Below, one piece after another: positions 1 through 7,974 of a stretch of 7,974 bases of DNA; the stretch's first letter is position 1, and each line of letters begins with the position of its first letter. The translations under genes and the position numbers were made by a program. The stretch is from a virus (Duplodnaviria > Heunggongvirae > Uroviricota > Caudoviricetes), in IMG/VR virus record IMGVR_UViG_2681813313_000001; one strand, given 5' to 3'. The notes beneath the pieces are model-generated. The model searched no databases, had not been told where the DNA came from, and saw only the letters and a program-made list of their open reading frames with translations.

Positions 1-80
1 TCATATTCATCCTGACTTTCCAGAACCATACGAATCGCCCGCTGACGGACTTCGGGGGAAAAACGAGTATTTTTAGTCAT
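1..80 (-). CDS. IS3-family transposase OrfA, N-terminal fragment (runs off window)
   Basis: Minus-strand ATG at 80..78; translation MTKNTRFSPEVRQRAIRMVLESQDEYD matches the N-terminus of IS3-group OrfA proteins (helix-turn-helix region) as I recall them. Confidence 0.8.
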   Translation of the reverse strand, partial: MTKNTRFSPEVRQRAIRMVLESQDEY

Positions 81-134
81 CCTGTTTACCTCTTTCTCAG
101 GGAGTTTAGTCTCCAGGATTTCCGGGGCGGTTCA
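1..134 (-). mobile_element. IS3-family insertion sequence (IS629/IS3411-like), terminal ~134 bp including inverted-repeat end; element continues beyond window start
   Basis: Reverse complement of 1-134 begins TGAACCGCCCCGG (IS3-family TG... terminus) and is followed by an SD (GAGG) and the orfA start; lambda P homology stops abruptly at ~134/135. Identity to IS629-like elements is from memory, not a search. Confidence 0.8.
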
Positions 135-727
135 GGTTCAGGGATCGCCTCACCACGGTTAATTCTCGCAGTCATATGGACAAGCTCATCTGCGGCCTTA
201 CGGCGTAATTCCGCATCAGTAAGCGCATTGGCCCGCATGTTCTGATACAGGTTGGTAACCAGCCAGTAGTGCGCGTTTGATTTCCACGGATAAGACTCCG
301 CATCCGGATACAGGCCTCGCTTCCGGCAATACTCGTAAACCATATCAACCAGCTCGCTGACGTTTGGCAGTCCGGCGGTAACGGATGCTTCTTCCCGGCA
401 CCATGCAACAAACTGCCCGGGTGATGGCAGAAATGGTCGATTCTGCCGACGGGCTACGCGCATTCCTGCGTTAACCTGTTCCATCGTGGTGATCCCGTTT
501 TCCCGAAAAGCCAGAACCCACTGGCGACGGATTTCGTTCACTTCGTTCTGGTCACGGTTAGCCAGGCTCGCCGGGAAAGTTGCCAGTAACTGGCTGAACA
601 CACCGTTGATGATCTGCGCTACCTGCTGTACCTGCGGCTTTTCGTCGTACTGTTCCGGCATGTTGTTGGCGATCCGACGCATCTGCTCACGGTCAAAGTT
701 AACCATCTGTGCGGCGATGTTTTTCAT
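86..727 (-). CDS. P: lambda replication protein P, C-terminally truncated; last ~15 codons are IS-derived (fusion tail)
   Basis: ORF translation MKNIAAQMVNFDREQMRRIANNMPEQYDEKPQVQQ... matches lambda P through ...RINRGEAIPEP, then diverges (EPPRKSWRLNSLRKR) exactly where the IS terminus starts. ATG at 727..725 overlaps the O stop (ATGA) as in lambda. Lambda P is 233 aa from memory; here ~198 P-derived residues. Confidence 0.9.
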   Translation of the reverse strand: MKNIAAQMVNFDREQMRRIANNMPEQYDEKPQVQQVAQIINGVFSQLLATFPASLANRDQNEVNEIRRQWVLAFRENGITTMEQVNAGMRVARRQNRPFLPSPGQFVAWCREEASVTAGLPNVSELVDMVYEYCRKRGLYPDAESYPWKSNAHYWLVTNLYQNMRANALTDAELRRKAADELVHMTARINRGEAIPEPEPPRKSWRLNSLRKR

Positions 728-1623
728 AGATCCACCCCGTAAATCCAGTCTGTGTTTGTCAGGTCGAGTTTTGGTTTGCTGGCTGTCACGCCTGCCTGTT
801 GCTTGTTACGGTTGATTTCGAGTTGGGTCCACTTATCGCGGAGTTTGGCCGGGCTCAGCACGTTACCGGACCAGAAGTTGTCCTGGCATGCCCAGCGGAA
901 CAGCACGCACATGTCGCGGTGGTTACGTCCGTCACGTTCACGCATCAGGCGGATATCGTTAGCCCACCCAGCAAAATTCGGTTTTCTGGCTGATGGTGCG
1001 ATAGTCTTCACCATGTCAAACATCCACTCTGCGGCGGTCAGGTCTTCTGCTGTCCCCCACTTGCTGCCGCTCTGAATTGCAGCATCCGGTTTCACCACAG
1101 AAAGGTCGTTTTCTGGCTGGTCAGAGGATTCGCCAGAATTCTCTGACGAATAATCTTTTCTTTTTTCTTTTGTAATAGTGTCTTTTGTGTCCCCCTGTTT
1201 TGAGGGATAGCAATCCCCCAATTTGAGGGATGTTTTATCCCTCGTTTTAGGGGATTTTCCCTCGTTTTGAGGGATGCACCATTCTGAGATGTTTTTATTT
1301 GGTCCAAACATGCCGCCTTGCTGCTTGATAATATTCATTCTGACGAGTTCTAACTTGGCTTCATTGCACCGTTTGACGGGTAACTTTGTAATCTCGCTAA
1401 GTTGAGAATCGGTGATTCTGTCCATTGGTTTATTCCACCCATAGGTTTTACGCAGAATGGCAAGCAGCACTTTAAACTGTCGCTTGGTCAGATCTGCGCC
1501 CGAATAAGCCTCAAGCAGCATATTTGATAGTCTGGCGTAACCATCATCGAGATCTGCCACATTACGCTCCTGTCCGGCAAAGTTACCTCTGCCGAAGTTG
1601 AGTATTTTTGCTGTATTTGTCAT
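724..1623 (-). CDS. O: lambda replication initiator protein O
   Basis: 299-aa translation MTNTAKILNFGRGNFAGQERNVADLDDGYARLSNMLLEAYSGADLTKRQFKVLLAIL... recognised as lambda O; SD AGGAG upstream of ATG at 1623; contains ori iterons internally as expected. Confidence 0.95.
   Translation of the reverse strand: MTNTAKILNFGRGNFAGQERNVADLDDGYARLSNMLLEAYSGADLTKRQFKVLLAILRKTYGWNKPMDRITDSQLSEITKLPVKRCNEAKLELVRMNIIKQQGGMFGPNKNISEWCIPQNEGKSPKTRDKTSLKLGDCYPSKQGDTKDTITKEKRKDYSSENSGESSDQPENDLSVVKPDAAIQSGSKWGTAEDLTAAEWMFDMVKTIAPSARKPNFAGWANDIRLMRERDGRNHRDMCVLFRWACQDNFWSGNVLSPAKLRDKWTQLEINRNKQQAGVTASKPKLDLTNTDWIYGVDL
1145..1276. repeat. ori-lambda: four ~19-bp O-binding iterons (about 1190-1276) plus adjacent AT-rich unwinding region (about 1145-1190), inside the O gene
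   Basis: Four tandem imperfect copies of the TCCCTC-AAAACG-AGGGA type palindrome seen at ~1191-1208, 1214-1232, 1236-1254, 1256-1274 (plus-strand reading: ccccctgttttgagggat / atcccccaatttgagggatg / tatccctcgttttaggggat / ttccctcgttttgagggatg), followed by a T/A-rich tract (taatcttttcttttttcttttgtaatag). Confidence 0.9.
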
Positions 1624-2068: not shown

Positions 2069-3424
<1,356 letters not shown>

Positions 3425-5232: not shown

Positions 5233-5601
5233 ATGTCAAACATCAAAAAATACATCATTGATTACGACTGGAAAGCATCAATAGAAATTGAAATCGACCA
5301 TGACGTAATGACAGAGGAAAAACTTCACCAGATTAATAATTTCTGGTCAGACTCTGAATACCGACTCAATAAACACGGCTCTGTATTAAATGCTGTATTA
5401 ATCATGCTGGCGCAACATGCTCTGCTTATAGCAATTTCAAGCGAATTAAATGCATATGGTGTTGTGTGTGAGTTCGACTGGAATGATGGAAATGGTCAGG
5501 AAGGATGGCCTCCAATGGATGGTAGCGAAGGAATAAGAATTACCGATATCGATACATCAGGAATATTTGATCCAGATGATATGACTATCAAAGCCGCCTG
5601 A
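5233..5601 (+). CDS. ea10: Ea10-like early protein (122 aa), function unknown
   Basis: 122-aa ORF at the position and with the length of lambda ea10 (between ral and cIII, 72 bp upstream of cIII); acidic, AT-rich codon usage. Identity to lambda Ea10 is inferred from synteny and size; the sequence itself was not recalled. Confidence 0.6.
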   Translation: MSNIKKYIIDYDWKASIEIEIDHDVMTEEKLHQINNFWSDSEYRLNKHGSVLNAVLIMLAQHALLIAISSELNAYGVVCEFDWNDGNGQEGWPPMDGSEGIRITDIDTSGIFDPDDMTIKAA

Positions 5602-5673
5602 GCGCGGCGTTACCGCATACCAATTACGCTTCACTCGAGGCGTTTTTCGTTATGTATAAATAAGGAGCACACC

Positions 5674-5838
5674 ATGCAATATGCCATTGCAGGGTGGCCT
5701 GTTGCTGGCTGCCCTTCCGAATCTTTACTTGAACGAATCACCCGTAAATTACGTGACGGATGGAAACGCCTTATCGACATACTTAATCAGCCAGGAGTCC
5801 CGAAAAATGGATCAAACAATTATGGCTATCCAGACTAA
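5674..5838 (+). CDS. cIII: CIII protein (FtsH/HflB inhibitor, stabilises CII)
   Basis: ATG 5674 after SD taaggag; translation [54 protein letters not shown] (54 aa) = lambda CIII. Below the size cutoff of the supplied ORF track. Confidence 0.92.
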   Translation: MQYAIAGWPVAGCPSESLLERITRKLRDGWKRLIDILNQPGVPKNGSNNYGYPD

Positions 5839-5950
5839 ATTCACTATCGCCACTTTTATTGGCGATGAAAAGATGTTTCGTGAGGCCGTCGACGCTTATA
5901 AAAAATGGATATTAATACAGAAACTGAGATCAAGCAAAAGCATTCACTAA
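5807..5950 (+). CDS. kil: host-killing protein Kil (cell-division/FtsZ inhibitor)
   Basis: ATG 5807 (SD AGGAG upstream), translation [47 protein letters not shown] (47 aa) = lambda Kil; overlaps the 3' end of cIII in another frame. The tool ORF 5681-5950 is its upstream extension. Confidence 0.88.
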
Positions 5951-6025
5951 CCCCCTTTCCTGTTTTCCTAATCAGCCTGGCATTTCGCGGGCGATATTTT
6001 CACAGCCATTTTCAGGAGTTCAGCC

Positions 6026-6322
6026 ATGAACGCTTATTACATTCAGGATCGTCTTGAGGCTCAGAGCTGGGCGCGTCACTACCAGCAGATCGCCCGTGAA
6101 GAGAAAGAGGCAGAACTGGCAGACGACATGGAAAAAGGCCTGCCCCAGCACCTGTTTGAATCGCTATGCATCGATCATTTGCAACGCCACGGGGCCAGCA
6201 AAAAAGCCATTACCCGTGCATTTGATGACGATGTTGAGTTTCAGGAGCGCATGGCAGAACACATCCGGTACATGGTTGAAACCATTGCTCACCATCAGGT
6301 TGATATTGATTCAGAGGTATAA
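6026..6322 (+). CDS. gam: Gam, RecBCD inhibitor (short GamS form, 98 aa); the upstream long-form (GamL) start at 5905 is in a different frame in this sequence
   Basis: Translation [98 protein letters not shown] recognised as lambda Gam; SD AGGAG 7 nt upstream of ATG 6026. Confidence 0.92.
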
Positions 6323-6327
6323 AACGG

Positions 6328-7113
6328 ATGAGTACAGCACTCGCAACGCTGGCTGGGAAGCTGGCTGAACGTGTCGGCATGGATTCTGTCGACCCACAGG
6401 AACTGATCACCACTCTTCGCCAGACGGCATTTAAAGGTGATGCCAGCGATGCGCAGTTCATCGCATTGTTGATCGTCGCCAACCAGTACGGCCTTAATCC
6501 GTGGACGAAAGAAATTTACGCCTTCCCTGACAAGCAGAACGGCATCGTTCCGGTGGTGGGCGTTGATGGCTGGTCCCGCATCATCAATGAAAACCAGCAG
6601 TTTGATGGCATGGACTTTGAGCAGGACAATGAATCCTGCACATGCCGGATTTACCGCAAGGACCGTAATCATCCGATCTGCGTTACCGAGTGGATGGATG
6701 AATGCCGCCGCGAACCATTCAAAACCCGTGAAGGCAGAGAAATCACGGGGCCGTGGCAGTCGCATCCTAAACGGATGTTACGGCATAAAGCCATGATTCA
6801 GTGTGCCCGTCTCGCCTTCGGATTTGCGGGTATCTATGACAAGGATGAAGCCGAGCGCATTGTCGAAAATACCGCATACACTGCAGAACGTCAGCCGGAA
6901 CGCGACATCACTCCGGTTAACGATGAAACCATGCAGGAGATTAACACTCTGCTGATTGCCCTGGACAAAACATGGGATGACGACTTATTGCCGCTCTGTT
7001 CCCAGATATTTCGCCGCGACATTCGCGCATCGTCAGAACTGACACAGGCCGAAGCAGTGAAAGCTCTTGGATTCCTGAAACAGAAAGCCACTGAGCAGAA
7101 GGTGGCAGCATGA
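6328..7113 (+). CDS. bet: Bet (Red-beta) single-strand annealing recombinase
   Basis: 261-aa translation [156 protein letters not shown]... = lambda Bet, full length. Confidence 0.95.
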
Positions 7114-7733
7114 CACCGGACATTATCCTGCAGCGTACCGGGATCGACGTGAGAGCTGTCGAACAGGGGGATGATGCATGGCACAAATTACGGCTCGGCG
7201 TCATCACCGCTTCAGAAGTTCACAACGTGATAGCAAAGCCCCGATCAGGAAAGAAGTGGCCTGACATGAAAATGTCCTACTTCCACACCCTGCTAGCTGA
7301 GGTTTGCACCGGTGTGGCTCCGGAAGTTAACGCTAAAGCGCTGGCCTGGGGAAAACAGTACGAGAACGACGCCAGAACCCTGTTTGAGTTCACTTCCGGC
7401 GTAAATGTTATTGAATCTCCGATCATCTATCGCGACGAAAGTATGCGCACCGCCTGCTCTCCCGATGGTTTATGCAGTGACGGCAACGGCCTTGAACTGA
7501 AATGCCCGTTTACCTCCCGGGATTTCATGAAGTTCCGGCTCGGTGGTTTCGAGGCCATAAAGTCGGCTTACATGGCCCAGGTGCAGTACAGCATGTGGGT
7601 GACGCGAAAAGATGCCTGGTACTTTGCCAACTATGACCCGCGCATGAAGCGTGAAGGCCTGCATTATGTCGTGATTGAGCGGAATGAAAAGTACATGGCG
7701 AGTTTTGACGAGATGGTGCCGGAGTTCAGGTGA
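7110..7733 (+). CDS. exo: lambda exonuclease (Red-alpha), 3'-truncated by IS1 insertion (about 206 of 226 codons retained; stop supplied by IS1 end)
   Basis: Translation [134 protein letters not shown]... matches lambda Exo up to ...VPEF, then the IS1 terminus (ggtgatgctgcc) supplies R-stop. ATG 7110 overlaps bet stop (ATGA). Confidence 0.9.
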
Positions 7734-7974
7734 TGCTGCCAACTTACTGATTTAGTGTATGATGGTGTTTTTGAGGTGCTCCAGTGGCTTCTGTTTCTAT
7801 CAGCTGTCCCTCCTGTTCAGCTACTGACGGGGTGGTGCGTAACGGCAAAAGCACTGCCGGACATCAGCGCTATCTCTGCTCTCACTGCCGTAAAACATGG
7901 CAACTGCAGTTCACTTACACCGCTTCTCAACCCGGTACGCACCAGAAAATCATTGATATGGCCATGAATGGCGT
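7729..7974 (+). mobile_element. IS1 insertion sequence, left end (IRL) and 5' part of insA; continues beyond window end
   Basis: ggtgatgctgccaacttactgatttagtgtatgatggtgtttttgaggtgctccagtggcttctgtttctatcagctgtccctcc... matches the IS1 left end as I recall it, starting exactly where exo homology ends. Confidence 0.9.
7784..7974 (+). CDS. insA: IS1 InsA (transposition repressor / N-terminal part of InsAB' transposase), partial, runs off window
   Basis: GTG start at 7784; translation [63 protein letters not shown]... = IS1 InsA zinc-finger N-terminus. Confidence 0.88.

Follow-up and report, generated by a model that had tools for sequence, protein, structure and literature searches.

A natural lambda/434-like prophage in which IS1203/IS629 truncates replication gene P, very probably at the cost of helicase loading

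In a natural prophage related to phages lambda and 434, with an immunity region of the imm434 type, replication gene P is truncated by an insertion sequence (IS) of the IS1203/IS629 group, and the shortened product has very probably lost the capacity to load the replicative helicase. The window, by which we mean the whole 7,974-bp stretch of DNA analysed here, is the entire draft contig CXZW01000051.1 of assembly GCA_001285525.1, the single record returned by an exact look-up of the P'-IS fusion protein. Both contig termini lie inside IS elements, each of which cuts a phage gene, IS1203 in P and IS1 in exo. Multicopy repeats are points where short-read assemblies stop, and it is for this reason that the contig ends within both elements; its termini are assembly breaks in repeats. 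The features on which the argument rests are collected in Table 1.

Table 1. Positions in the window of the features discussed in the text
Feature	Position	Strand	Basis or remark
IS1203/IS629 left end: IRL, leader and first 26 codons of orfA	1..134	minus	Cut by the contig end
IS1203 orfA N-terminus (MTKNTRFSPEVRQRAIRMVLESQDEY...)	3..80	minus	Translation; ATG at 80-78
P'-IS fusion ORF, 213 aa	86..727	minus	ORF list, alignment to lambda P PDB chains, codon listing
IRL (TGAACCGCCCCGGAAATCCTGGAGA)	110..134	minus	Pairs over about 25 bp with the IRR of the complete 1,310-bp element in strain 2009C-3133
P-derived part of the fusion ORF, lambda 39582-40174	135..727	minus	Zero nucleotide differences from lambda
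O, replication initiator, intact	724..1623	minus	Protein with zero amino acid differences from lambda O
Four ori-lambda iterons (lambda 39034-39118)	1191..1275	minus	No mismatches
cro-434	2069-2284	minus	434-type immunity region
cI-434	2391-3023	plus	434-type immunity region
hex	3020-3424	plus	Annotated as repressor-protection protein Hex in lambda imm434; downstream of cI-434
Truncated exo', which keeps 206 of 226 residues and ends with R and a stop from IS1	7110..7733	plus	Translation against lambda exo
IS1 left end with insA N-terminus	7729..7974	plus	Cut by the contig end

The junction of P with IS1203/IS629

Read on the minus strand, window 1700-135 corresponds to lambda 38609-40174 with 1564 of 1566 nucleotides identical (2 mismatches), and the homology ends inside P codon 198, at window 135 (lambda 40174). 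At the junction ...ATCCCTGAACC is followed by TGAACCGCCCCGG..., whereas lambda instead goes on AGTAAAAC; in a longer read, ...ATCCCTGAACC is followed by TGAACCGCCCCGGAAATCC..., and the lambda counterpart beyond the break is AGTAAAACAACTT. The first-pass annotation had placed the switch at about position 134 and had counted about 198 P residues and 15 IS-derived ones, and all of these figures prove exact; the agreement with P on one side and the IS on the other goes far beyond chance. The fusion ORF consists of P residues 1-198, 15 residues encoded by the IS (EPPRKSWRLNSLRKR) and a TAA at 88-86, so that the product lacks residues 199-233, the last 35 of P, and IS-encoded residues stand in their place. 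P and the transposase gene of the IS are co-directional, and a ribosome translating P therefore continues into the IS repeat for 15 codons. Aligned to lambda P, residues 1-198 of P' are identical except at residue 2 of PDB construct 8v9t, and nothing matches beyond 198. P' belongs to the lambda replication protein P family (PF06992, Phage_lambda_P), with a score of 209 bits and the whole model covered by its residues 38-198; it is not a complete protein with domain IV (193-233).

A natural variant of the P C-terminus was also considered and is refuted: the tail and the next 86 nt are 100% identical to IS1203 and run into orfA. At the break point, lambda, lambda imm434, 434 and many other phages continue with VKQLPVMGG....

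IS1203/IS629 is an IS3-family element common in E. coli and Shigella, either of which would suit the IS content of the contig as its source. The minus strand of window 1-134 matches its left end at 134 of 134 positions (E=4e-63) and is base for base the same as an intact 1,310-bp IS1203 copy from E. coli strain 2009C-3133, which bears out the earlier claim of an IS3-family element at 1-134. By its terminal repeat and its near-identity to the reference copy, the element is a member of the IS3 family, IS629/IS1203 group. Among 5,426 complete E. coli genomes, 3,613 carry it, at more than 23,000 places in all. The end that faces P begins 5'-TG, window 134 downward being TGAACCGCCCCGG..., and it is recognised as the IRL, as opposed to the IRR, by CCGGAAATCC in place of CCGGGTTTCC and by the orfA start that follows. 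With no more than 26 aa of it in the window, the orfA fragment reaches 19.6 bits against HTH_Tnp_1 and so falls short of the Pfam cut-off of 24.1; the annotation of intact copies is IS3-like IS1203 transposase, made by a programmed -1 frameshift (orfA HTH, orfB DDE). Since the join sits precisely where the IS begins (TG...), it is a product of transposition. The earlier description of the IS as inserted in P holds as far as its joining within codon 198 is concerned; the insertion itself we infer, because one IS end is present and the draft contig stops inside the element.

The IS had also been described as presenting an outward-facing end to the replication module. Its IRL does adjoin P, but a promoter scan for an outward-reading IS promoter gave no sigma-70-like promoter in window 1-900. 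The transposase gene at the IRL end reads away from P, in P's own direction, and because the two are co-directional the P-side end of the IS is where transposase expression starts and not an end that fires outward. Window 1-900 holds two weak terminator-like sites, at the level of shuffled sequences. The P' stop TAA (window 78-88 region, minus strand) overlaps the orfA Shine-Dalgarno (AAGAGGTAA), 5 nt before the ATG, and the RNA fold of a read-through transcript across the junction (z = +0.78) has no structure above shuffled sequences and gives no sign that the orfA ribosome-binding site at the junction is either hidden or unusually accessible. As no significant RNA structure or convincing terminator intervenes, pR read-through with stop-start coupling into orfA is possible. 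Upon SOS induction the 434-type repressor would be cleaved, N-antiterminated pR transcription would then read through O and P' into IS1203, and coupled translation of orfA could set off stress-triggered bursts of transposition, a course of events that we consider quite improbable.

The segment between the two insertion sequences

The 7.6 kb between the two IS elements carry exo', bet, gam, kil, cIII, ea10, ral, sieB, N, hex, cI-434, cro-434, cII, O and P'. This segment is 98.8% identical to lambda imm434; most of the differences, 84 mismatches and 5 gap openings in total, fall in the red/gam region and on either side of the immunity region. Contamination by laboratory lambda imm434 is ruled out by these 84 mismatches and 5 gap openings, and the DNA is therefore that of a natural lambda/434 relative and not of a laboratory phage. 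The immunity region (2069-3424) is of the phage 434 type and the N, cII, O and P genes that flank it are lambda-like, which is the same mosaic as in laboratory lambda imm434, although here it occurs in a natural isolate. Divergence from lambda and lambda imm434 is uneven, with 3 mismatches in 1,928 nt over O-P-cII and about 5-10 differences per 250 nt over gam-bet-exo (window 5500-7728), a pattern consistent with mosaic recombination among lambdoid phages.

The origin and the initiator have been left in order. Within lambda 38609-40174 the only mismatches are at 38931 and 39402, both in O and both synonymous, so the O protein is identical to that of lambda. With iteron coordinates carried over from the J02459 annotation, lambda 39034-39118 is unchanged, and the first-pass annotation was right to call O and the ori iterons intact.

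At the other end of the contig, homology to lambda and imm434 stops at window 7728, inside exo, and the IS1 terminal repeat takes over at the very next base, window 7729, opening with GGTGATGCTGCCAACTTACTG. The element is identified as IS1 by its terminal repeat GGTGATGCTGCC... followed by insA, with the Pfam domains Zn_ribbon_InsA and HTH_Tnp_IS1, and its end has IS1A and IS1B matches in E. coli genomes. The exo/IS1 junction was absent from the 5,426 complete E. coli genomes, where no place covers 80% of the query. This second IS, which cuts exo at the end of the contig opposite to P, had been overlooked in the first-pass annotation.

Insertions near the site and what lies beyond the element

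As a contiguous match, the P/IS1203 junction was absent from the 5,426 complete E. coli genomes, in which the query matched only as 12 two-piece joins, the IS lying elsewhere in each, and the exact junction had 0 matches in IMG/VR viral contigs, GTDB species-representative genomes and JGI metagenome contigs. A simple insertion predicts the reciprocal junction CCCGGGGCGGTTCA-ACC-AGTAAAACAACTTCC, that is, the right end of the IS, a duplicated ACC and lambda 40175 onward. Searching viral and genome contigs for the IS right end followed by 0-8 nt and lambda 40175 onward gave 0 matches.

Three finished genomes served as comparators, and in all of them IS1203 sits slightly further downstream as an independent, clean 1,310-bp insertion with a 3-bp duplication: in ren of strain 2009C-3133 (locus L001, duplication GTC), in ninB of strain 24AR0357 (locus L002, duplication TAC) and in P, after codon 225, of strain 61_150228 (NZ_AP026099.1, locus L006, duplication AAG). 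The ren and ninB insertions, 0.3-0.55 kb downstream in lambda-like prophages, are copies of this element, with 100% identity across the 134 bp, but P is untouched by them and the genes they interrupt are dispensable for replication. In 61_150228 the 1,310-bp element, oriented as here relative to P, likewise interrupts the 3' end of a prophage P gene of the lambda type; there both IS ends and the AAG duplication are visible, whereas our contig has one IS end, and full-length P reappears when the IS is taken out together with one of the two AAG triplets. The eroded element of 61_150228 adjoins icd and comprises int, xis, a partial O, P, the IS, ren and emrE. Its truncated P (225 aa, WP_032285615.1; L006 2674-3351) is named "replication protein P" in RefSeq, with no pseudogene flag.

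The IS1203/IS629 left end also lies in the same orientation about 0.1-0.55 kb downstream of our site in 12 complete E. coli genomes, a count that includes clonal repeats such as four CFT073 assemblies. These ends occupy at least six different sites within ren, ninB or the 3' part of P, and the cluster may reflect a regional preference for insertions or a tolerance of them.

For the event in P itself, we lean somewhat towards a simple insertion with an ACC duplication, the form taken by three of three finished-genome comparators near the site, each with its 3-bp duplication. These comparators speak against another reading, to which we give serious weight while holding it to be somewhat short of probable: IS1203 would be the edge of a deletion or rearrangement, and IS1203 and IS1 would together bound a 7.6-kb relic running from exo' to P'. 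The late region, ren-nin-Q and the int/xis/att side would then have been lost or moved by IS-mediated events, and P would be truncated as well, with no other half of the gene adjoining the IS. That both ends of the contig are in IS elements cutting phage genes fits such a relic, as does the position of the P-IS1203 locus of 61_150228 in a heavily eroded element. In O157:H7, 62% of IS629 copies are in prophages or prophage-like elements (PMC3271280). In that survey, which concerns the same IS group, fewer than half of the sites, just 21 of 47, have matching 3-4 bp duplications and many copies are at rearranged sites (PMC3271280), and this makes a deletion or rearrangement boundary a serious possibility. 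The predicted reciprocal junction, too, had no match anywhere searched, but this weighs little against insertion because the left junction is missing from the collections as well. P is truncated whether the IS arrived by insertion or marks a deletion or rearrangement.

A fault of assembly, in which the P read path was misjoined to an IS copy from elsewhere, would suit a short draft contig that ends in repeats and a junction that is unique among all the collections searched. The switch, however, coincides exactly with the opening base of the IS terminal repeat, as it also does at the IS1 end, which argues strongly against a chimeric mis-join because a random join would not land on both IS termini. 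Two samples are moreover listed for this contig, and we think a chimera extremely unlikely.

Consequences of losing P residues 199-233

The 2.66 Å structure of the DnaB-lambdaP complex defines domain IV of lambda P as residues 193-233, a C-terminal lasso or grappling hook (PMC12661323). The lasso helix, 211-227, lies alongside the DH and LH helices of neighbouring DnaB subunits in five of five protomers; it buries about 1400 Å^2 per protomer, shears the DH-LH interface during ring opening and is the sole element structurally common to lambda P and the DnaC loader (PMC12661323). Domain III and the N-terminal lasso of P likewise contact DnaB (PMC12661323), and a P fragment spanning 103-233 suffices for robust DnaB binding (PMC6391071). 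A 66-aa tag at the C-terminus of P is tolerated (PMC3640518), so the C-terminal end itself is not sterically critical. The residues lost at the junction comprise the entire lasso helix and most of domain IV, and the earlier claim that the missing part of P is the region that interacts with DnaB agrees well with the DnaB-lambdaP structure. In 61_150228, by comparison, P is shorter by 8 residues and retains most of the lasso helix, whereas the break here comes after codon 198.

We found no published test of a P deleted for 199-233 in the literature. Loss of helicase loading can nonetheless be soundly inferred, because nearly all of domain IV, with the helix that wedges into DnaB, is missing. P' keeps its O-binding and oligomerising N-terminal parts and domain III, and so may still bind O, oligomerise and touch DnaB, but it would be unable to open and load the helicase. 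With no DnaB loaded at the intact O/ori-lambda, the prophage would not replicate upon induction, and a replication defect through truncation of P is, on these structural grounds, highly likely.

Residual activity of P' is conceivable, because the Pfam P domain, domain III and the N-terminal lasso are kept. At its strongest, this would mean that the truncation is functionally mild and that P(1-198) loads DnaB adequately for prophage replication: the Pfam domain is entirely retained, DnaB is bound by domain III and the N-terminal lasso as well, and in strain 61_150228 a P that stops 8 residues short carries the annotation of an ordinary protein. We regard this outcome as unlikely, as the helix 211-227, which shears DH-LH in five protomers and is the only DnaC-like feature, is wholly absent from P'.

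Insertion of an IS in P is a classic escape from replicative killing (PMC4926192). The spontaneous P::IS2 mutant 566a, in a trapped lambda prophage fragment, is replication-defective and survives replicative killing (PMC4926192); as here, an IS lies in lambda P, and in that mutant P function and ori-lambda replication are abolished (PMC4926192). The two cases differ in that IS2 of 566a is at lambda 39690, near the 5' end of P, and was selected in the laboratory and functionally tested (PMC4926192), whereas IS1203 here is at lambda 40174 in a natural isolate and the defect in P function is predicted. The lesion is real and is ordinary prophage decay, of which comparable IS lesions are well known; the specific P/IS1203 site is new to the collections searched, and the kind of lesion was known already.

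The significance of the finding is only local. It carries a warning for annotation, as a P truncated by an IS can be called a normal "replication protein P" in finished genomes. The natural P(1-198) allele drops the C-terminal lasso almost exactly at the boundary between domains III and IV, which makes it a ready construct for probing the role of the lasso in helicase loading, though one that could trivially be made on purpose. For the isolate itself, the lesion is of use in annotation and in judging whether the prophage is inducible: it is very probably defective in replication, and the IS1 break in exo has deprived it of the Red exonuclease too.
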